A stretch of 64,000 bases of DNA. Origin: a virus (taxonomy: Duplodnaviria > Heunggongvirae > Uroviricota > Caudoviricetes). The notes beneath the pieces are model-generated. The model did no database searches, had not been told where the DNA came from, and saw only the letters and a program-made list of their open reading frames with translations. Numbering within the stretch: position 1 is the first letter of the stretch; every line of letters starts with the position of its first letter. Below, piece by piece: positions 1,248-60,074 of this stretch. The position numbers were made by a program, and so were the translations under genes. The DNA lies in the IMG/VR virus record IMGVR_UViG_2576861193_000004, positions 1-64,000 of that record. One strand, 5' to 3'.

Positions 1248-3587
1248 TTAATCTTCTAATTCATCTGTCGGTGATGTCTTCTCGCGCCTGTCATCTATTG
1301 CCTGTAACGCAGCAATGATTTCAGCTAATGGCTTCTCCCGGTACATCTCGACGATCTGTGATTTGGTGTATTTCTTCTCGCCAATTTCCACACGCCCGCT
1401 GGCGCTCTTGGGCAGGTATCCTTCCTCCAGCATGTATTCGACCAGAGACTCGACGACGTCCAGCCCGCGAGTCGGGTCGAAGTAGAATTTCCATGAGCAT
1501 TTGCCAAACGGAGGCGCGACTTTGTTTTTAATGCACTCGGCGCCAACGTCCTGTCCGATCTTCTCTTTGCCATCCTTCATGACGGATGCACCCAGACGGA
1601 TGCGCACCGACGCGTAGAACTTCGGAGAGTCGCCACCCGGAGACGTAGTCGGATCGCCAAACATCACACCAATTTTGGTACGCACCTGGTTCAAGAAGAT
1701 GATGCACGCGTTGTACTTACGCGCCCAAAGCGCCAGAGTAGGGAAGTTCGCACTTGTCGCGCGCGCCAGCGCCGTGTTGTCGTTCATGTTCAGCTGATCT
1801 TTGTCCTTCGCAGTGCCTTCTGCCATCTTGTCGAACTTCTCAGCCTTCGAGTTCGGAACCATCGACGCCAGAGAGTCGGCTACGATGCAGATAGGGGCTG
1901 TTTCCGGAATAAGCTCTTCGTCGCGCACCAGCTTGAGGATTGTGCCGATCAGCTCTACGGAGTCTTCGAAGGTATCCGGCTGTTTGTAGACCCACTGACC
2001 GTCGTCTTCGTCGGCGTTCAGTCCGTTCGCTACCGCCAGACCAACGTCGAAACTGTTTTCGTGGTCAAGGAATACGGCCAGACCATCCTGTTTTTGTGCT
2101 GACACCATCGCAGCCGTCGCGAGGAATGTGTTGTGGCTGATAATCCCGTTAGACCAGAAAGAGTGTGTTTCCGGCATCGCTACGTCGAACGTTGGTGCTT
2201 CACCTTCCTCAATAGCCACGACTTCGTCGTAGAACAAGTTAGAGTCAATTACCGCTGCCAGTTGTGCAAACAGATGCTCGTTAAAACGATTCTTTCTGCC
2301 AATGAAGGAGACATAGATTTCTCGCAGTTTGTCTATTCCGACACGATCGCCGCGGCCAATAACGTGATCTACCAGAACGTAGTCTTTACGAGAGGTCTTG
2401 GTGAGTGACTCGTAGAGTGATTTCACTAAGCCGCTGATGTGCGGAACGTAGCCTAAATAAGTGCGGTCAAAACTAATGTCCCGTTTGGTTGCCACTGCTA
2501 AACGAGCCGGAGACTCGAACCCAATCGTTGACAGGAAAAGGTCGTAGTTAGAGCCACTGAATGACAGCCGGTAATATATGTTTTTATAACCTGCGACGTG
2601 TTTTTCAGAGATAGTTGACGTAATCCCCAGATTCAGGAGCATGAGGCGAATTTGCTGTAGCAGCAGCCCACTCGCGCTCACAACCTCAATGCAGCGACCA
2701 TCATTGACGTGGCATTCCAGCTCAAAGTAGCCGCGAAGGAATGCAATTTGAGCCTCGCTATTGGCGCGACGCACACTCAACGGAACCTGCTTGCCAGCAG
2801 CTTTCTCATACTCCAGACCATATTCTTTAAAAAGCAGCGAACGCACCTCTTTGCTAAACAGCACATGGTCTTCCGAGCCGTTATGTTTTCTCGTAACTGG
2901 CATCTTGTCTGATACCAGCGAAATGAGGCGGTAGTACTCATCCTTGATGAATGGATCTGTGTTAGAAACATGCACAGAATTTTCAGAGGCCACGTATCCG
3001 TCAGCAATTAAATAGCCCATCAGTTTTGCGATATTGGCATCCAAGTGCTGATCGCCGAATTGATGTGTGCCAACCATTGAAGGAATCGTGTCGCCTACAC
3101 TGATTTTTTCAGCATGTCGCCAGACGACATTACCTAAGTCGTCAACCACACGGATTGGGTGACGGAACGTAGCCTCGATATAACCGCCTGATGCCAGCTT
3201 AATACGCTTGAATTTGCGACGGTTGTTCCATGTCAGGTGTGAGGTCTTCTCTATCACGCCATTTTCATTGATGAGTCCAACGTTATGCTCTACATCGCGA
3301 GTAGTGCATGTCGCTTTGTACCCTTCAATCTCAAACAACTCTTTCACTGTTACCATTCCACGCTCCGTCAGCAGCATGGTGTCTGCGGTAACACATTTCC
3401 CCGCGCTTGGTGGCCCGAATACTTCTACGATACGACCACATGGGAAACCGCCATCGTAACGACCGGAAATAGCTTTGTTTAACGGAGGAAAGCCTGTGTC
3501 AATCCAATGAGTTACTTTCTGAATTTCGTCGTTGCTACCGATTTTCTTTTTCAGAGCAAGTGCCAGTGCGGATTTTCCTTTTGCCAT
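1248..3587 (-). CDS. RecA/UvsX-like recombinase interrupted by an intein
   Basis: N-extein ...GRIVEVFGPPSAGK then C-extein TFLATAAMVSAQKQDGLAVFLDHENSFD... reconstitutes a RecA P-loop and core (compare E. coli RecA [20 protein letters not shown]...). Spliced length about 357 aa. Confidence 0.9.
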   Translation of the reverse strand: MAKGKSALALALKKKIGSNDEIQKVTHWIDTGFPPLNKAISGRYDGGFPCGRIVEVFGPPSAGKCVTADTMLLTERGMVTVKELFEIEGYKATCTTRDVEHNVGLINENGVIEKTSHLTWNNRRKFKRIKLASGGYIEATFRHPIRVVDDLGNVVWRHAEKISVGDTIPSMVGTHQFGDQHLDANIAKLMGYLIADGYVASENSVHVSNTDPFIKDEYYRLISLVSDKMPVTRKHNGSEDHVLFSKEVRSLLFKEYGLEYEKAAGKQVPLSVRRANSEAQIAFLRGYFELECHVNDGRCIEVVSASGLLLQQIRLMLLNLGITSTISEKHVAGYKNIYYRLSFSGSNYDLFLSTIGFESPARLAVATKRDISFDRTYLGYVPHISGLVKSLYESLTKTSRKDYVLVDHVIGRGDRVGIDKLREIYVSFIGRKNRFNEHLFAQLAAVIDSNLFYDEVVAIEEGEAPTFDVAMPETHSFWSNGIISHNTFLATAAMVSAQKQDGLAVFLDHENSFDVGLAVANGLNADEDDGQWVYKQPDTFEDSVELIGTILKLVRDEELIPETAPICIVADSLASMVPNSKAEKFDKMAEGTAKDKDQLNMNDNTALARATSANFPTLALWARKYNACIIFLNQVRTKIGVMFGDPTTSPGGDSPKFYASVRIRLGASVMKDGKEKIGQDVGAECIKNKVAPPFGKCSWKFYFDPTRGLDVVESLVEYMLEEGYLPKSASGRVEIGEKKYTKSQIVEMYREKPLAEIIAALQAIDDRREKTSPTDELED
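2130..3395 (-). mobile_element. intein (about 422 aa) with LAGLIDADG homing-endonuclease domain inserted in the recombinase P-loop
   Basis: Begins with Cys right after GPPSAGK, ends with HN followed by Thr (+1); internal LMGYLIADGYV motif; boundaries computed from residue positions 65 and 486. Confidence 0.8.
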
Positions 3588-16077: not shown

Positions 16078-16464
16078 ATGTCTGATAACAAGATTGAATT
16101 TATAGAAAGTCGCTACGCTGCTTTTATCGCAGGGTTGATTGAATCCTCACCTATGAGCCAGGCCCAGATAGCCAAAACAATTGGGTATAAAAACGCCAAC
16201 AACCTTTCTTTAATTAAAAGCGGCAAAATTCCTTTGCCTATCGATAAGGTTCGTCCGCTGGCGCTGGCACTGGGTATTGAGCCAAGTCGTCTTATGATGA
16301 TGGTGCTGGAAGAACGCCAACCCGAACTCGCAGCATTTTTATACAAAGAAGGCACTGCTCCTCTTAACGAGGACGAAAAACAGGTTCTTGCTGCATATAA
16401 CGAGCGATTCGGTAAAGAGAAAGGCGCATCACAAAAGGTTGTTGAGGCCATAAAGTCTCTATGA
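16078..16464 (+). CDS. XRE-family helix-turn-helix transcriptional regulator
   Basis: HTH segment MSQAQIAKTIGYKNANNLSLIKSGK; 128 aa; convergent with the recombinase gene. Confidence 0.7.
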   Translation: MSDNKIEFIESRYAAFIAGLIESSPMSQAQIAKTIGYKNANNLSLIKSGKIPLPIDKVRPLALALGIEPSRLMMMVLEERQPELAAFLYKEGTAPLNEDEKQVLAAYNERFGKEKGASQKVVEAIKSL

Positions 16465-17562
16465 AAAATTTACACGAATAAGCTCTGTTGATAGACGATC
16501 TCCCTTAAATTTGTGGTCAATTTCGTCTAAATCCGGTTGCTCTACGATTGATGCGATGTACGTCGAGAAACTTTCTAAGGCGTCTCGCATCTCGTCCATA
16601 TAATCGTGCCGGTCGTAGACCCGATCTATCCCCTCAAGACTGTGGTTCATGATTTTACGTGATACCTCCTGGCTTATGCCTAATGCTGGGAAGTAACTAC
16701 GCGCAGTACGGCGCAAATCTCGGGGTGTAAATGGCTCAAGCTCCATCAGTTCTGGTCGTTCCAGAATACGACGTAATGCCTGGGCTATTGCCACTTTAGA
16801 CATAGGAAGGTCTTTCCCGATTTTTTTATTCGAAGGCACGAGCCACTGGCTGTCTTTACCATATTCGAACAACTCTTCAATACAAGTGCGCATTAATGAG
16901 CTTAAAGGCAGAGAATGCTCACGGGCAGATTTGTTCCTCTTGCCTTGATTCCAAACCCCACGCTTAAGATTGAACTCACTTTTTTTAGCCCGCAGTACTT
17001 CGTCAGGTCGTCTTGCGGATACAAGACATAGCCTGGCAGCCCATTTTGTACCAGCACACACATTGAAGTAGTCCCATATATTCCAGAACACCCATACCTC
17101 TGCGTCGGTCAGCTTCCGCTCGCGAGGTGTGGGCTTTGCGCCACCGGCAACTTTGTTAAGTGACATATCGTTTAACGGTGACACGTCTATCATCCCCTGG
17201 AAGGCGCACCAGCTAAGGAACTGCTTCATCAGAGAGAAAACGCGGCGGCCCATAACAATTTTGCCATCCAGTATTAGTGGGTTGACCAGTTGGTTCACCA
17301 TGAACCTATTAATGTCACTTACTTTTACATCGGCAATGTGCGGCAAAACATGTATCAAAATACAATGAACAGCGATCTCTGGCCGACGTCTGGTTATCAG
17401 CAGAGATAAGCGAGTGAATAACATGAATGCGTCCGAGAATCTCATGTCATTGCTAACCTGCGAGATCATAACGGCCTGCATTTGAGATGCTCTTTCGAGA
17501 TACTCTATCGCCTCTTTTGAGGTGTTCTCCGCAGCGCGTGCTCTGTCAAAGCTATTTTTCAT
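16459..17562 (-). CDS. int: tyrosine site-specific recombinase (phage integrase family)
   Basis: Catalytic-domain residues in order: ARRPDEV (Arg), PRDLRRTA, MNHS, RVYDRHDY (Tyr). Could be an integrase or a multimer-resolution recombinase. Confidence 0.8.
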   Translation of the reverse strand: MKNSFDRARAAENTSKEAIEYLERASQMQAVMISQVSNDMRFSDAFMLFTRLSLLITRRRPEIAVHCILIHVLPHIADVKVSDINRFMVNQLVNPLILDGKIVMGRRVFSLMKQFLSWCAFQGMIDVSPLNDMSLNKVAGGAKPTPRERKLTDAEVWVFWNIWDYFNVCAGTKWAARLCLVSARRPDEVLRAKKSEFNLKRGVWNQGKRNKSAREHSLPLSSLMRTCIEELFEYGKDSQWLVPSNKKIGKDLPMSKVAIAQALRRILERPELMELEPFTPRDLRRTARSYFPALGISQEVSRKIMNHSLEGIDRVYDRHDYMDEMRDALESFSTYIASIVEQPDLDEIDHKFKGDRLSTELIRVNFS

Positions 17563-18406: not shown

Positions 18407-18438
18407 GCAAAAAAGGGGCCGAAGCCCCTTTGAATTTT
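18407..18438. terminator. bidirectional hairpin terminator candidate
   Basis: aggggcc-ga-agcccct stem flanked by an A-run upstream and T-rich sequence downstream. Confidence 0.5.
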
Positions 18439-18586: not shown

Positions 18587-18673
18587 TGGCGGAGAGTAAT
18601 GGAATCGAACCATCATCGCTTGCGCAATGGGACGGTTTTCAAGACCGCTTGAGCACCATGCTCCCTACTCTCC
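18587..18673 (-). tRNA. tRNA-Ser: tRNA-Ser (anticodon UGA), type II with long variable arm
   Basis: Manual fold of the reverse complement: 7-bp acceptor stem GGAGAGT/ACTCTCC, discriminator G, encoded CCA, T-loop TTCGATT, anticodon loop CTTGAAA. 87 nt. Confidence 0.8.
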
Positions 18674-18772
18674 AGCTATTGTGATGGTCGGTGCTGAACT
18701 CCGACACAGGGTTGTAGCAAGCCCCGCAAAGCGCGCACTACTGTAGTTGCGGCACATCAGCCTGTGCATTCA

Positions 18773-18862
18773 TCACAACGGTAAGATCACTACCTTTCGA
18801 CCAGTCATTGTGCACATGAACGACGATTAACCGTAATGATCTTATCGTTGTGTTGTGAAGCC
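18773..18862. repeat. long stem-loop 1 in tRNA spacer (arms CACAACGGTAAGATCA / TGATCTTATCGTTGTG)
   Basis: About 17-bp inverted arms with one mismatch, separated by about 50 nt; paralogous to stem-loop 2. Confidence 0.6.
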
Positions 18863-18900
18863 AGATGCTTATCTTCTGGTTGCTTCAAAGAGCTGCACTT

Positions 18901-18996
18901 CCTCACAACGGTAAGAGCACTGGTCTGACTCTATCGATTTACGGGCTTGTGGGTCAGTATCGCCGATTCGCCCAATGCTCTTACCTGTTGTGTTGG
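18901..18996. repeat. long stem-loop 2 in tRNA spacer (arms CACAACGGTAAGAGCA / TGCTCTTACCTGTTGTG)
   Basis: About 17-bp inverted arms separated by about 50 nt; right arm abuts the 3' end of tRNA-Thr. Confidence 0.6.
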
Positions 18997-19069
18997 TGCC
19001 GGTTAACGGGATCGAACCGCTGACATCCTGCTTACAAGGCAGGCGCTCTACCAACTGAGCTAAACCGGC
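18994..19069 (-). tRNA. tRNA-Thr: tRNA-Thr (anticodon UGU)
   Basis: Reverse complement GCCGGTTTAGCTCAGTTGGTAGAGCGCCTGCCTTGTAAGCAGG...GGTTCGATCC...AACCGGCACCA: D-stem GCTC/GAGC, anticodon stem CCTGC/GCAGG, loop CTTGTAA. 76 nt. Confidence 0.85.
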
Positions 19070-19073
19070 AATT

Positions 19074-19160
19074 TGGTGGGGAGTGATGGAGTCGAACCAC
19101 CCGAGTCGCAATGACAGTAGATTTACAGTCTACCCCGCTGCCCCTACGGACTAACTCCCC
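19074..19160 (-). tRNA. tRNA-Tyr: tRNA-Tyr (anticodon GUA), type II
   Basis: Acceptor GGGGAGT/ACTCCCC, anticodon arm GTAGA-CTGTAAA-TCTAC, long variable arm, T-loop TTCGACT, CCA encoded. 87 nt. Confidence 0.8.
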
Positions 19161-19165
19161 TAAAT

Positions 19166-19240
19166 TGGCGATGGTGGGTGGATTCGAACCACCGACCAGT
19201 TGGTTAACAGCCAACTGCTCTACCGCTGAGCTACACCATC
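19166..19240 (-). tRNA. tRNA-Asn: tRNA-Asn (anticodon GUU)
   Basis: Acceptor GATGGTG/CACCATC, D-arm GCTC-AGCGGTA-GAGC, anticodon arm GTTGG-CTGTTAA-CCAAC, T-arm GGTGG-TTCGAAT-CCACC, CCA encoded. 75 nt. Confidence 0.85.
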
Positions 19241-19506
19241 AATTCAGCACTGCCAGTATTTATTACTCAACAGTGCCAATCGCGACGGTTTAGTTTCTGC
19301 CAGGAAACGCACCGCTACTTGCACTTTTCGTTAGTGCCAGACGCTTTCGACTTCGCTCAATAGTAGAAGGCAAAATCTTTAAGTAGATGATGTTTCTGAG
19401 GACAGCACCTACTTTGTAATTTATACAATGTGATGTATGGAATCATTTGTTGTGAAAACAGGCACCAATGGCAACAGTGGTTAAACCTACACAACAATCC
19501 TGTCTT

Positions 19507-19628
19507 CACAACGTTGAGGCCACTACTCCGATTGAATGTTTGCCCAACATGTTACATATCAACGCTCGCCGGTATCTCTGTGAATAGAACCTTAGAATTG
19601 ATAAAAATGTAATGGCCTCAACGTTGTG
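19507..19628. repeat. perfect 15-bp inverted repeat CACAACGTTGAGGCC / GGCCTCAACGTTGTG separated by 92 bp
   Basis: Read directly (arms 19507..19521 and 19614..19628); shares the CACAACG core with the tRNA-spacer stem-loops. Confidence 0.7.
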
Positions 19629-19789
19629 TGCTGGCTAACCATACCAGCCGGGCTACGTCGCCGCTTTTTAACCCAGTATAAACGACATAATTGAACAAAA
19701 TGACGTAACAGGATGGGCGGTCAGTGGCTAAGAATCCGGGAGTCATATGGAGTTGAAAATATACCAACCGCCCATTCTGTTACTTCATC

Positions 19790-19813
19790 GGAGGGAACAT
19801 GAATGTTCCCTCC
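19790..19813. repeat. strong palindromic hairpin GGAGGGAACAT-ga-ATGTTCCCTCC
   Basis: 11-bp perfect arms read directly, in a 780-bp stretch without convincing ORFs. Confidence 0.7.
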
Positions 19814-20018
19814 TGCGTTCTGCAATCACACTCGCTCAGTGTGTCCCATTTCGGTAACGAGGCTGGAAACTGACCTCGCTGGTGTTTGGCTTATTAGGCT
19901 ACTGCCAGATAGACTTCTTCGTTTGCACTTGTATTTAAGTTCAAACAGTCGCGTCTCAACGAAAACAAAGTCATCTTATACATAAAAGATAAGTAAGTAA
20001 ATACTTATCACCATGTTT

Positions 20019-20309
20019 TTATTCGGTTGTGACTTTTTTGATCAAGGCCACTCTACGACTAGGTGTTCTTGTGATGGTGGCAGTGAATCGTTTCGCTTGG
20101 ATAGTAATGGTTTCGTTCTCCTTAAGTTGCCCGTAGCGAGTTTCCACCAGGGTGCCAAGACGCCACAGACCATCATCGATACGTTTATGACTGGCAAATT
20201 TAATCAGCAGCAGTTTTACGACTAACTGACCTACGTAAAAGGCGAATGCGACTCCGGCCGCTAAGAAATAGGTGGCCAACCACCAGTCCCAAGAAGTTAA
20301 ATTGCTCAT
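20019..20309 (-). CDS. hypothetical membrane protein
   Basis: 96 aa with N-terminal hydrophobic segment WWLATYFLAAGVAFAFYVGQLVV; AAGG Shine-Dalgarno before the ATG. Confidence 0.45.
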   Translation of the reverse strand: MSNLTSWDWWLATYFLAAGVAFAFYVGQLVVKLLLIKFASHKRIDDGLWRLGTLVETRYGQLKENETITIQAKRFTATITRTPSRRVALIKKVTTE

Positions 20310-20458
20310 TTTCTAACCTTTGTTTCATGAACTACCCGATACACACGCTTTCCGATGCACAGTGTTTTGGTTTTAAGTTCCTGCTTAATTAAATCACGAC
20401 AGATGCCGAAGCCGATAAGGAAGCCACCCATAAAAGCTAATGAGATGTATGGAATCAT
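20306..20458 (-). CDS. small hydrophobic protein (50 aa), not in the ORF track
   Basis: MIPYISLAFMGGFLIGFGICRDLIKQ...; its stop overlaps the ATG of the downstream gene; its start lies inside a copy of the GTATGGAATCATT motif. Confidence 0.25.
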   Translation of the reverse strand: MIPYISLAFMGGFLIGFGICRDLIKQELKTKTLCIGKRVYRVVHETKVRK

Positions 20459-59183: not shown

Positions 59184-60074
59184 TTATGCCGGTAAAGCAA
59201 TTTCTAACGGTTTATCCAAAGGTTGTTTGTCGAATGCCAGCAGTGGCAGCGTGTCAGGCAGTCGACGACCAAAGTCAGGGTTTCGGTACACACCATACAA
59301 CGGAGACGTAAAGCTCAGGTTGTGAATGTCCTTGAGCAGCTTCACAATGCTGGCCTCGTCCACCAGACTGTCGGCAATGTCCTGAATCGTCGTGCCACGA
59401 TTCCGCCCAGCTTTTGCCAGGGAACTGTTCTTGTGGTAGTCCGCCACCAGATCACGCAGTGCACGGCGACGACGAGACTCGCTCATTGCGAACAACTCTT
59501 TGACGATCGCCTCGTTATCACCAGGGTCGGAACGGAAATGGCGCTGGAATACACGCAGTGCACTTTCATAGCTCTTCGGTCGCTCAGGGCGGATGAACTT
59601 AAACCCTGCTTTCATGGCGAAGGGATTGTATTTGCTCATCGAGGACTGGATCTCAATGATTGGCCGGTCATGCATCCTGCTAACCAGGTTAATCATTCGA
59701 TAAGAGACGCCTACGCCACGATACTGAGTATCCACAACTGAGCGACTGATCACCGCAAAGTTGTTATTCACGTACCGACCCCAGTACTGGTTAGCCACGG
59801 TGGTATTAGTGGTTGGTTTCAACTTAGGAAACATGCGGTGGCGAGGTGCCAGCAGTAGTTTCGGGTAAGCCATAACCACGACGCCCACCAGACGGTCATC
59901 AAGTTCGCAGCGATAGTAAGTTGGCGCGAAAGGTTTGCCGTCTGTTTTGTAGTGAAGCGACTTAAGAGCGTGCCAGTCCTCTACAGTTCCCTTTGTGACA
60001 GTCATTCGCTCCAGAAAGTCCAGATGACGCGGAAACTCTTCAGGGCGGTAGCGTTTAATGATGATGTCCGTCAT
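59184..60074 (-). CDS. GNAT-fold acetyltransferase domain protein with C-terminal extension
   Basis: GNAT motif A-like VVDTQYRGVGVSYRMINLV and YNPFAMKAGFKF; 296 aa; start overlaps the ABC ATPase stop by 4 nt. Confidence 0.6.
   Translation of the reverse strand: MTDIIIKRYRPEEFPRHLDFLERMTVTKGTVEDWHALKSLHYKTDGKPFAPTYYRCELDDRLVGVVVMAYPKLLLAPRHRMFPKLKPTTNTTVANQYWGRYVNNNFAVISRSVVDTQYRGVGVSYRMINLVSRMHDRPIIEIQSSMSKYNPFAMKAGFKFIRPERPKSYESALRVFQRHFRSDPGDNEAIVKELFAMSESRRRRALRDLVADYHKNSSLAKAGRNRGTTIQDIADSLVDEASIVKLLKDIHNLSFTSPLYGVYRNPDFGRRLPDTLPLLAFDKQPLDKPLEIALPA

Follow-up and report, generated by a model that had tools for sequence, protein, structure and literature searches.

The stretch of DNA analysed here (hereafter, the window) comprises the 64,000 nucleotides (nt) at positions 1 to 64,000 of the IMG/VR virus record IMGVR_UViG_2576861193_000004; the analysis concerns an interval of 778 base pairs (bp) of it (19241-20018), together with the small RNA, derived from transfer-messenger RNA (tmRNA), that this interval is predicted to encode. 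The interval is located between a minus-strand tRNA cluster (18587-19240) on one side and small minus-strand open reading frames (ORFs), followed by a DNA ligase gene, on the other. It shares 99% identity with Escherichia phage Cyrano and with two 'CMS-2020a' records, and Salmonella phage SSU5 is about 79% identical to the window over 19432-20008, so that, judging from these similarities, the window is an SSU5-like phage-plasmid. The Cyrano, CMS-2020a and SSU5 records bear no annotated feature in the interval. A first-pass annotation of the window had seen no convincing ORF in it, and this stands: the four largest ORFs of the interval (the largest ones being of 49-60 amino acids) and the two small flanking ORFs have no credible Pfam match, and the insertions and deletions found in the relatives are not multiples of three. 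On the basis of its sequence, the interval can be read as the 5' part of a minus-strand stable-RNA operon running into the tRNA cluster, the first product of which would be a tmRNA-derived RNA of about 150-180 nt (about 19969-19790, minus strand), that is, an mRNA-like half without the tRNA-like domain. The structured non-coding RNA proposed in the first-pass annotation was, thus, right in kind, but the main element (about 19969-19815, minus strand) is none of the features listed there; of these, an 11-bp hairpin would be the 3' stem-loop of the tmRNA-like RNA and an inverted repeat one of the covarying hairpins located downstream in the same transcript.

It is known that tmRNA is universal in bacteria and that its tRNA-like and mRNA-like halves have always been seen as one unit. 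About 150 nt of the interval (19824-19978) also match hundreds of unrelated phages, with 73-78% identity. Homologues of the element are present in at least 614 phage records and in 752 plasmids, all of the latter being of the SSU5/pHCM2/pMT1 type and carried by Klebsiella, Escherichia, Enterobacter, Salmonella, Yersinia pestis and others; a pattern scan of IMG/VR disclosed 119 further loci with 96 distinct variants, and the prophages of 137 of the 5,426 complete Escherichia coli genomes carry the element, in its lambdoid type alone. Besides the SSU5/pHCM2/pMT1-type phage-plasmids, the groups harboring it are the Felix O1-like, Vi1-like, N4-like, T1-like and lambdoid phages. In the Ounavirinae the element is located inside tRNA arrays, on the tRNA strand, and the match in Citrobacter phage Michonne likewise lies within a tRNA array and on the same strand as the tRNAs; in HK620 it occupies a stretch of the late leader flanked by qut and the terminator tQ. 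In no record viewed is the element annotated as an RNA, being at most overlain by an occasional 'hypothetical protein'. The element is 93% identical across the SSU5-like loci, with flanks of 55-70% identity. Two records may be mentioned apart: the 137-kb Yersinia pestis plasmid NC_006323.1 (pMT1 type) holds at 75767-76171 the element and part of the structured region downstream of it, with 84.5% identity, and GU169904, labelled Staphylococcus phage SA1, holds at 59419-59627 a copy of the Felix O1 type, 89.6% identical, which suggests that a Felix O1-like sequence was deposited under that name through mislabelling or contamination.

The core of the element is a start-less frame of ten codons closed by two consecutive stop codons (Table 1), and the peptide that it specifies, ANEEVYLAVA, resembles the tag of the E. 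coli SsrA RNA (ANDENYALAA, also closed by two stops). No in-frame start codon exists between the upstream stop and the initial GCA in 11 of the 13 lineages compared, nor is there a Shine-Dalgarno sequence in any of the 13. The frame is kept in every phage group examined, in the distant ones by synonymous changes, and its product is conserved as AN[DE]xx[YF]LAVA, with an LMAA ending in two groups (UUG AUG GCG GCG UAA in EC1-UPM and CS01); the tag of Maynard, for example, is encoded by GCU AAU GAU AAC ACG UUC CUG GCA GUA GCU UAA UAG, that of SPARTY ends in GUG GCG UAA, and in Felix O1 (L124) the first stop is UGA instead of UAA (GCU UGA UAG). The comparison of 24 distinct tags revealed that two first, three second and nine third codon positions out of ten are variable; along their minimum spanning tree, 50% of the differences are synonymous in the tag frame versus 11% and 8% in the other two, which are interrupted by internal stops in 23 and 10 of the 24 tags, respectively. 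These patterns indicate that the tag frame is under purifying selection, with a clear coding signature. An alternative frame of nine codons, (A/G/C)UG CAA ACG ... UGG CAG UAG, was discarded: SSU5 and Maynard have lost its start, SPARTY has lost its stop, and only 8-11% of the changes in it are synonymous. The program ARAGORN independently reports a 'tmRNA*' in Moogle, with the tag ANDNVFLAVA followed by two stops; this call is evidently the 'ssrA' mentioned in the genome announcements of Moogle and Mushroom.

The A-rich leader preceding the resume codon (i.e., the first codon of the tag) is also reminiscent of tmRNA. When positions -12 to -1 were compared in the same 13 lineages, the A at -4 turned out to be invariant, and AUAA is present at -6 to -3 in nine of them, E. 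coli tmRNA having AUAG; at -5 the window has a C, where E. coli tmRNA has U85. Further upstream, a putative sigma-70 promoter predicts an RNA start at about 19966-19969, which would put the 5' end at the sequence GUUUUCG. Its position is kept in the SSU5-like loci (TTTACT-N17-TAAGAT or TATGAT), and the Ounavirinae have TTGACA-N17-TAAGAT (Michonne) or TTGACA-N17-TATAGT (Felix O1); the assignment in the window can be proposed from this conservation. In Felix O1 (L124, 1600-1790) an insertion of about 90 nt separates the conserved promoter from the element.

The proposed fold was evaluated on 37 non-redundant sequences belonging to six groups (lambdoid phages, Ounavirinae, Kuttervirus, N4-like phages, Drexlerviridae and siphoviruses of about 46 kb). 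Standard pairs account for 94.9% of its cells, against 31-45% when the partners are slid; 13 pairs have changed on both sides (2-7 for slid partners), and the covariation score was reached by none of 500 shuffles. Compensatory changes were found in five helices. In the helix that encloses the stop codons, equivalent to tmRNA helix 5, the outer stem is paired in 100% of the sequences, with a G-C to A-U change in two of them, and three pairs covary in the inner stem, which is 89% paired. Pseudoknot A is 99.5% paired in stem 1, where three pairs covary (UA/CG 24:13, GC/AU 25:11 and AU/GC 33:4), and 100% paired in stem 2, with two covarying pairs; stem 1 of pseudoknot B is 100% paired and occurs as CG, UA and GC pair types. 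By inspection, stem 2 of pseudoknot B is clear in other phage groups (GCCC/GGGC, GGCCCUGA/UCAGGGC, GGCGGGAG/CUCCCGCC and GCCCAC/GUGGGC). The window's own sequence forms the same helix and pseudoknot pairs, although this last stem is weak there. Conservation between groups begins at GUUUUCG and ends after pseudoknot B and the terminal helix, and the fold, as predicted from these pairings, has the layout of the mRNA-like half of tmRNA. The 3' stem-loop (I4) is 96.7% paired in 17 SSU5-like relatives, with five covarying pairs and a loop ranging from 2 to about 24 nt. The closing-helix sequence GGUAAGAGCAUUG has its partner strand 5' of the element in the lambdoid phages and 3' of it in EC1-UPM and in the SSU5-like loci, i.e., in a permuted arrangement.

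Table 1. Predicted features of the stable-RNA region on the minus strand (positions are those of the window).
Feature	Coordinates	Strand	Description
Putative sigma-70 promoter	19973..20001	-	-35 TTTACT (20001-19996), 17-nt spacer, -10 TAAGAT (19978-19973)
5' antisense arm	19943..19966	-	Box 1, 4-nt loop (19956-19953), box 2
A-rich single-stranded leader/linker	19927..19942	-	GAACUUAAAUACAAGU; upstream of the resume codon; A at -4 equivalent to tmRNA A86
Tag reading frame	19891..19926	-	GCA AAC GAA GAA GUC UAU CUG GCA GUA GCC (19926-19897) and UAA UAA (19896-19891); ANEEVYLAVA, two stops
Helix 5 equivalent	19879..19908	-	CUGG (19908-19905) with CCAG (19882-19879); encloses the end of the tag and the stop codons
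Pseudoknot A	19844..19878	-	Stem 1 CGAGG (19878-19874)/CCUCG (19862-19858); stem 2 loop UUCCA (19868-19864)/UGGGA (19848-19844)
Pseudoknot B	19815..19843	-	Stem 1 CACAC (19843-19839)/GUGUG (19831-19827); stem 2 tentative, GCG (19835-19833)/CGC (19817-19815)
3' stem-loop (I4)	19790..19813	-	11-bp hairpin of the first-pass annotation; corresponds by position and sequence to the lambdoid closing helix
Helix I1	19700..19788	-	22-bp arms, 45-nt variable loop
Conserved block	19629..19699	-	About 86% identity versus about 66-70% in its neighbours; hairpin GCUGG/CCAGC (19648-19630)
Helix I2	19507..19628	-	Inverted repeat of the first-pass annotation; 20-bp arms, 82-nt variable interior, CACAAC...GUUGUG ends
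Helix I3	19449..19512	-	14-bp arms; 5' arm overlaps the last 6 nt of I2
Direct repeat ATGATTCCATACATC, 15 nt	19434..19448 and 20444-20458	-	Other-strand form of the motif of the first-pass annotation
Downstream part of the presumed operon	18587..19240	-	tRNA-Asn, tRNA-Tyr, tRNA-Thr, two hairpins, tRNA-Ser (tRNAs by ARAGORN and Rfam)
Two near-perfect hairpins of about 85 nt	18774-18857 and 18904-18992	-	Between tRNA-Thr and tRNA-Ser; CACAAC...GTTGTG ends

The first 25 nt or so of the predicted RNA form a conserved two-box arm complementary to the decoding start of the host tmRNA (nt about 82-104). In the window, box 1 (GUUUUCGUUG, 19966-19957) can pair with tmRNA nt 95-104, i.e., codons 2-5 of the host tag, and box 2 (GCGACUGUUU, 19952-19943) with nt 82-91, which reach across the frame-setting U85/A86 region into the resume codon and include two bases of the latter, the first and the second. 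The strength of this pairing was calculated with RNAduplex against the verified sequence of E. coli ssrA, using dinucleotide shuffles as a control, for 12 representatives of all the groups. The window arm gives -26.3 kcal/mol, the shuffles a mean of -14.4 (standard deviation 3.2), and none of 200 shuffles reaches the observed value; the tag region of the same RNA gives -13.8 kcal/mol. All 12 arms (36 nt, against tmRNA nt 76-112) fall between -23 and -29 kcal/mol, with shuffle means from -11 to -18 and zero to two of 200 shuffles reaching the observed value, and pairing with their own tag region yields -10 to -18 kcal/mol in 11 of the 12 and -22 in L075. Nucleotides 76-112 are the best tmRNA site for the window, Michonne and SPARTY (whose box 2 is UGCUUCUAUUUUU), and in the other representatives the best duplex takes in this site and reaches further upstream, to nt 52-75; the complementarity runs on to nt 64-69 or thereabouts, into the 3' strand of pseudoknot 1, in the lambdoid, N4-like and Kuttervirus types, and reaches nt 106-107 in the Ounavirinae. 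When the full-length molecules are cofolded, the heterodimer is favoured by 3-16 kcal/mol.

The variation of the arm follows this pairing. Across all the phage groups the two boxes change hardly or not at all, and the linker between them differs in sequence and in length (about 2 to 12 nt); when 63 SSU5-like copies are compared, the arm varies at five positions, three of them in the predicted 4-nt internal loop and two at helix-terminal pairs. Codons 3-5 of the phage tag vary while the boxes do not, and it is precisely at the positions engaged in the pairing (-5 to -1 and codons 3-6) that the phage tag departs from the host one. Pairing of the arm with the RNA's own tag was rejected as its main function, being weaker than that with the host and lacking co-variation with the tag codons. 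As to pseudoknot 1, which in tmRNA lies between the tRNA-like domain and the tag, the 5' region of the lambdoid types can be folded as a hairpin, which is 94.9% paired with no pair changed on both sides; the nucleotides involved are those complementary to the host tmRNA. For the other segments of the interval, including the 19699-19629 block and the stem interiors, the pairing with tmRNA does not exceed that of shuffles, and they were discarded as further arms of this kind. A long stable helix lies directly 5' of GUUUUCG in EC1-UPM (a 16-20-bp hairpin; L127, about 1670-1760) and a 13-bp perfect hairpin in Maynard (L129, about 1650-1720), where the lambdoid phages have the closing helix; this suggests that the 5' end of the arm may be generated or protected by a double-stranded structure.

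No tRNA-like domain accompanies the element. ARAGORN did not find a tmRNA or a tRNA-like domain in the window, SSU5, HK620, Michonne, the Felix O1 locus, KpV2811, EC1-UPM, Maynard or CS01; Rfam likewise detects none in the window or in the related loci, and the inspection of 19241-20030 disclosed neither T-loop nor acceptor pairing; besides the 780 bp, the sequence upstream and the relatives were looked through as well, with the same negative outcome. A covariance-model search of the interval, which had been suggested together with the first-pass annotation, was carried out with Rfam 15 (E <= 10) and gave sub-threshold tmRNA alignments alone; no other known RNA family was recovered. All the Rfam tmRNA models remain far below their gathering thresholds (14-34 bits versus 47-84) and match only the tag region and the hairpin that follows it: the window scores 14.4-17.3 bits with beta_tmRNA (threshold 84), whereas tmRNA_permuted, the alignment of which leaves out about 98 positions of the acceptor part, scores 33.7 bits on EC1-UPM, the highest value among the relatives, and 29.8 on Moogle (threshold 47). 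The RNA cannot be counted as a member of the tmRNA family, since the tRNA-like domain is absent, and for the same reason it could not be charged or enter the ribosome by itself. The Moogle call of ARAGORN was not accepted as a complete tmRNA, as it extends over 749 nt and takes in three complete tRNA genes, and no conserved tRNA-like piece is located upstream in the SSU5-like, lambdoid, N4-like or siphovirus loci. In Maynard (L129, about 1351-1430 and about 1745-1790, minus strand), unannotated tRNA-like units with good T-arms (GGUUCGAGUCC and GGUUCGAAUCC) and an encoded CCA flank the element; in one of them a GAAA-capped stem replaces the anticodon arm, and ARAGORN calls none of them. They were rejected as an acceptor piece, being absent from the relatives L075 and L088 (Kuttervirus-type contigs).

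Downstream of the element, the minus strand is rich in hairpins. The inverted repeat of the first-pass annotation, a perfect 15-mer (19507-19521 and 19614-19628) enclosing 92 bp, was confirmed and extends to 20 nt at 95% (19507-19526 and 19609-19628); according to our own arithmetic, about 0.01 such 15-bp repeats within 150 nt would be expected by chance in 64 kb. The hairpin 19790-19800/19803-19813 is also there as described, with a perfect 11-bp stem and a 2-nt loop, and so is the motif GTATGGAATCATT (19436-19448), which has a second copy at 20446-20458. Two long-range stems had been overlooked (19700-19721/19767-19788, 22 nt, 91%; 19449-19462/19499-19512, 14 nt, 93%). In 17 SSU5-like relatives the stems have 93.8% of their cells paired, against 32-48% in slid controls; 12 pairs have changed on both sides, and none of 500 shuffles reaches the covariation score. 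Helix I1 is 93% paired, one pair alternating between G-C, A-U and A.C (counted as one covarying pair) and three between G-C and G.U on the minus strand; I2 is 97.9% paired, with three covarying pairs (including GC/AU 9:8), and its interior is shortened or deleted in some relatives; I3 is 75% paired in MAFFT columns, owing to register shifts, with two covarying pairs and compensatory variants (GUGGCCACGG/CGUGGCCAC) in the L006 type. Mismatches in the stems, read on the minus strand, comprise 51 G.U against 17 A.C, which points to RNA helices of that strand rather than to DNA sites. The inverted repeat, the hairpin, the motif copy and the other stems exceed chance but are peripheral to the main element. 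Single relatives lack I4 (L110, by natural deletion) or the I2 interior, so that neither is an essential part of the core RNA. As an intrinsic terminator, 19790-19813 was discarded: there is no U-tract on either strand, and the terminator scan does not call it.

It can be suggested that the region 19813-19449 probably consists of structured precursor spacers, i.e., nuclease processing signals located between the RNA and the tRNAs. I1, I2 and the hairpins between tRNA-Thr and tRNA-Ser are candidate processing hairpins of the RNase III type, forming a near-uninterrupted duplex of at least about 20 bp between functional RNAs, and the 20-22-bp arms of I1 and I2 are conserved by compensatory change. 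I2 and I3 share the CACAAC/GUUGUG ends with those hairpins, the arms of which (GGUAAGAGCAUUG/CAGUGCUCUUACC; GGTAAGAGCA(T/C)TG) are identical to the lambdoid closing helix. In Cyrano the two hairpins and tRNA-Tyr are missing, and tRNA-Ser and tRNA-Thr are 8 nt apart; the hairpins may represent a mobile or duplicating module, or else leftover 'empty' closing helices. A terminator, GGGGCUUCGGCCCC-U6, can be read on the minus strand at about 18432-18408, and the order of the precursor would be promoter, tmRNA-like RNA, hairpins, tRNAs and this terminator. The sequence GGGGCTTCGGCCCC (about 18408-18432), with A6 on one side and a T-rich stretch on the other, seems to fit the rules of the terminator scan, although it was not reported by it; it looks like a bidirectional intrinsic terminator closing the stable-RNA operon. 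In the conserved block, the hairpin 19648-19630 is 100% paired, with one compensatory change from G-C to A-U. Repeated motifs of the ACGUC/GACGU type (UUACGUCAU, UUAUGUCGU and GCGACGUA) were observed in the same block on the minus strand, and may form a helix alternative to the 3' arm of I1 (GUUACGUC/GACGUAAC), that is, a structural switch.

What might such a template without a tRNA-like domain do? According to the reading that we favour, the arm would dock the phage RNA onto the host tmRNA, which would supply its alanine-charged tRNA-like domain and SmpB. Once docked, the phage RNA would mask the host resume codon, and its own leader and resume codon would come to lie beside host pseudoknot 1, at some 16 nt from where the duplex ends; the host resume codon normally lies 11 nt from that pseudoknot, roughly the same place. 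Rescued ribosomes would then translate the phage tag (...LAVA) in place of the host one (...ALAA), and the fate of the tagged proteins might be altered during lysogeny or infection. That docking takes place in either form, swap or inhibition, we consider probable. Docking followed by a swap of the tag is advanced tentatively, as a possibility of somewhat less than even standing, and the more specific proposal that a template-only phage RNA turns the host tmRNA into a two-molecule chimera, so that stalled ribosomes append a peptide of the AANEEVYLAVA type, is put forward with still more reserve. Several points weigh against the swap. The switch of a ribosome to a template merely base-paired to tmRNA would be an unprecedented step, and a duplex of about 20 bp beside the decoding site might block trans-translation instead. 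Homology among the 12 arms means that their shuffle tests do not stand independently of each other, and the energy models ignore pseudoknots and proteins. Box 2 of the Ounavirinae has a U.U mismatch with E. coli tmRNA; a genome scan for hosts having ...AAUAGAAGCA..., as predicted from the arm of a Hafnia/Erwinia phage, returned chance matches only, the pattern being too short (the match in Brenneria is not an ssrA). In the lambdoid phages the element forms part of the late leader, from which the arm would have to be freed by processing. Moreover, the ends of the RNA are deduced from sequence, the window promoter is a weak match to the consensus (8/12, below the threshold of the promoter scan), and stem 2 of pseudoknot B is weak in the SSU5-like loci, including the window itself.

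The same complementarity would serve a plain inhibitor of tmRNA: the docked arm might just block tmRNA or have it cleaved (e.g., by RNase III acting on a duplex of about 20-35 bp), shutting down host trans-translation and tagging, with the phage tag left untranslated and the tmRNA-like body bringing the RNA to SmpB, protein S1 or the ribosome, or stabilising it. This explanation does without the unprecedented template switch, and it has a precedent in the 'TLD only' tmRNA of phage DS6A, a molecule similar to which strongly inhibits tmRNA (Hudson et al. 2014, PMC4131195). Nevertheless, it leaves unexplained why the frame evolves as if translated (synonymous third positions, GCA AAC to GCU AAU, CUG to UUG, fixed length and stops), why the A at -4 and the context of the resume codon are retained, and why the phage tag avoids its own arm; we regard it as rather unlikely, although it is the main rival of the swap. 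Alternatively, the RNA might be the coding piece of a true two-piece tmRNA, pairing with an unrecognised acceptor piece of the phage or of the host, its complementarity to host tmRNA being incidental. The ARAGORN permuted call in Moogle, the tmRNA_permuted scores of EC1-UPM and Moogle, the frequent vicinity of tRNA genes, the tRNA-like units of Maynard and the two permuted arrangements of the closing helix could all be quoted for this idea. The extent of the Moogle call, the restriction of the Rfam alignments to the tag region and the absence of the Maynard unit from L075 and L088, all described above, tell against it, as do the 5' end GUUUUCG, which is devoid of a G3.U70-type acceptor strand, and the fact that no acceptor-like sequence is conserved beside the element across groups, there being none at all in the lambdoid, N4-like and siphovirus loci; we judge a two-piece tmRNA improbable. 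It is well established that genomic islands and prophages commonly integrate in ssrA and carry its fragments, so that a decaying relic, namely a captured ssrA or an attP-type ssrA fragment devoid of present function, with stems that are incidental or are DNA-level repeats, was also considered. Integration fragments, however, hold the 3' tRNA-like end of ssrA and not its tag portion. Moreover, virulent phages retain the element, complete with a promoter of its own; it is far better conserved than its flanks, its peptide is under purifying selection and five of its helices have undergone compensatory changes, all of which renders the relic hardly credible. Nor does the proposal, in the first-pass annotation, of an origin or recombination site fare better. 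A site acting as DNA in replication, partition or recombination would agree with the presence of several long inverted repeats, of a 15-nt direct repeat that flanks about 1 kb and is invariant in relatives, and of an integrase-like gene 2 kb away. On the other hand, there are neither iterons nor an AT-rich unwinding tract, the base composition is ordinary, and matches resembling DnaA boxes number 43 versus 57 expected; furthermore, protein-binding sites would keep their sequence, while these stems tolerate G.U on one strand and vary by compensation, and their interiors are freely variable or deleted. A replication origin was accordingly discarded, and a DNA site of any of these sorts appears extremely improbable, the 15-nt repeat ATGATTCCATACATC being the sole feature that could still act at the DNA level.

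The phage RNA may be compared with several known systems. With one-piece tmRNA (RF00023) it shares a start-less internal frame opening on a GCA alanine codon, a 10-codon tag beginning A-N-D/E, an aromatic residue at tag position 6, a hydrophobic Ala-rich C-terminus, double stops, the A at -4 (A86), stop codons within a helix and H-type pseudoknots after the tag; in the lambdoid copies, moreover, the closing helix occupies the position of tmRNA helix 2. It differs in lacking the tRNA-like domain (acceptor stem, T-arm and CCA) and, apparently, a recognisable pseudoknot 1, in having two rather than three pseudoknots after the tag and about 150-180 nt instead of 363, and in the addition of a 5' arm antisense to the host tmRNA. 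The two-piece tmRNAs of alpha- and beta-proteobacteria and cyanobacteria (RF01849, RF01850 and RF04321) likewise have the coding function on a separate piece, and are the closest in Rfam similarity, in the permuted label given by ARAGORN to Moogle and in the two permuted arrangements of the closing helix; however, a single gene gives rise to both their pieces, the 5' acceptor strand is part of the coding piece, and the two are held together by the acceptor and helix-2 stems rather than by pairing of the coding region, whereas no acceptor piece was found for the phage RNA, whose proposed partner is a complete host one-piece tmRNA bound through antisense pairing.

Trans-acting antisense RNAs and anti-small RNAs of enterobacterial prophages are known, e.g., DicF, AgvB and AsxR. 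As in these, a short conserved 5' region would pair with a specific host RNA, and the location is a regulatory or leader region of a prophage; the phage RNA differs in that its candidate target is tmRNA, and not an mRNA or an Hfq-dependent small RNA, and in combining a long, two-part pairing (about 20-35 bp) with a translatable template of the tmRNA type. The species 1 and 2 RNAs of T4 (rnaC and rnaD) are small stable RNAs encoded in a phage tRNA cluster. They have in common with the present element, to which no annotation viewed assigns a function, the location beside tRNAs, a probable co-transcription and the release by processing; what distinguishes the latter is that its descent from tmRNA can be recognised and that a candidate target is defined for it. 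A survey of phage ssrA genes reported them only from mycobacteriophages (Bxz1-type) and Bacillus phage G, in addition to the 'TLD only' RNA of DS6A (Hudson, Lau and Williams 2014, PMC4131195). These are tmRNA-derived phage genes too, and DS6A even offers the case of one tmRNA half alone, able to interfere with trans-translation; yet DS6A keeps the tRNA-like half, so that the RNA described here is the complementary case, a coding half plus an antisense arm, and the Enterobacterales phages and phage-plasmids in which it occurs do not figure in that survey (PMC4131195). In the open full-text literature, subscription-only papers being outside reach, nothing was retrieved beyond mentions of an ARAGORN 'ssrA' for Felix O1 and Moogle; a tmRNA consisting of the coding half alone is not described in the survey or in the open literature searched. 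The phage RNA is clearly derived from tmRNA, and its mechanism is possibly new.

The existence of a separable coding half makes it testable whether the template of trans-translation may be supplied or redirected in trans. If the tag swap were true, trans-translation would for the first time be seen to use a template provided in trans, and a virus would for the first time be known to rewrite the protein-quality-control tag of the cell. Ribosome rescue and the proteolysis directed by ClpXP/SspB would be a new point of phage-host conflict, which is relevant to the dependence of Mu and of some lambdoid hybrids on SsrA, known from early genetic work. Even an RNA that merely inhibits would be a natural anti-tmRNA agent, of interest since trans-translation is an antibiotic target. 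In any case, the gene is missing from the annotation of many records, including those of therapeutic-phage candidates and of the phage-plasmids found in Klebsiella, in Salmonella (relatives of the Typhi-type pHCM2) and in Yersinia pestis.

Some further observations concern the surroundings of the element. The repeat ATGATTCCATACATC brackets two small ORFs and the whole RNA module: the upstream copy coincides with the first 15 nt (MIPYI) of a hydrophobic ORF of 50 amino acids (20458-20306), preceded by a ribosome-binding site, and the second copy, 1 kb downstream, sits where the structured block ends on its 3' side. In the SSU5-like loci hardly any change is seen in either copy, synonymous sites included, while their flanks diverge; one copy has a one-base change in four of 55 loci, and the upstream copy was not found in five of the 55. 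The repeat could be a mimic or decoy of a translation start, a recombination core or a processing site. A 367-amino acid integrase (so annotated in Cyrano) is encoded at 16459-17562 on the minus strand, 1 kb from the tRNA cluster, which is unusual for an element maintained as a plasmid. Finally, upstream of tRNA-Asn, a short island at 19310-19345 (minus strand), CGUCUGGCACUAACG(A/U)AAAGUGCAAGU(A/U)GCGG, is conserved in the SSU5-like loci amid sequences that cannot be aligned. A sigma-54 promoter was considered there by inspection only (CTGGCAC...GTGCA, about 19335) and discarded, as it resembles the -24 element but the spacing to the -12 GC is off by 4 nt; the island itself contains a 5-bp hairpin (GCACU/AGUGC).

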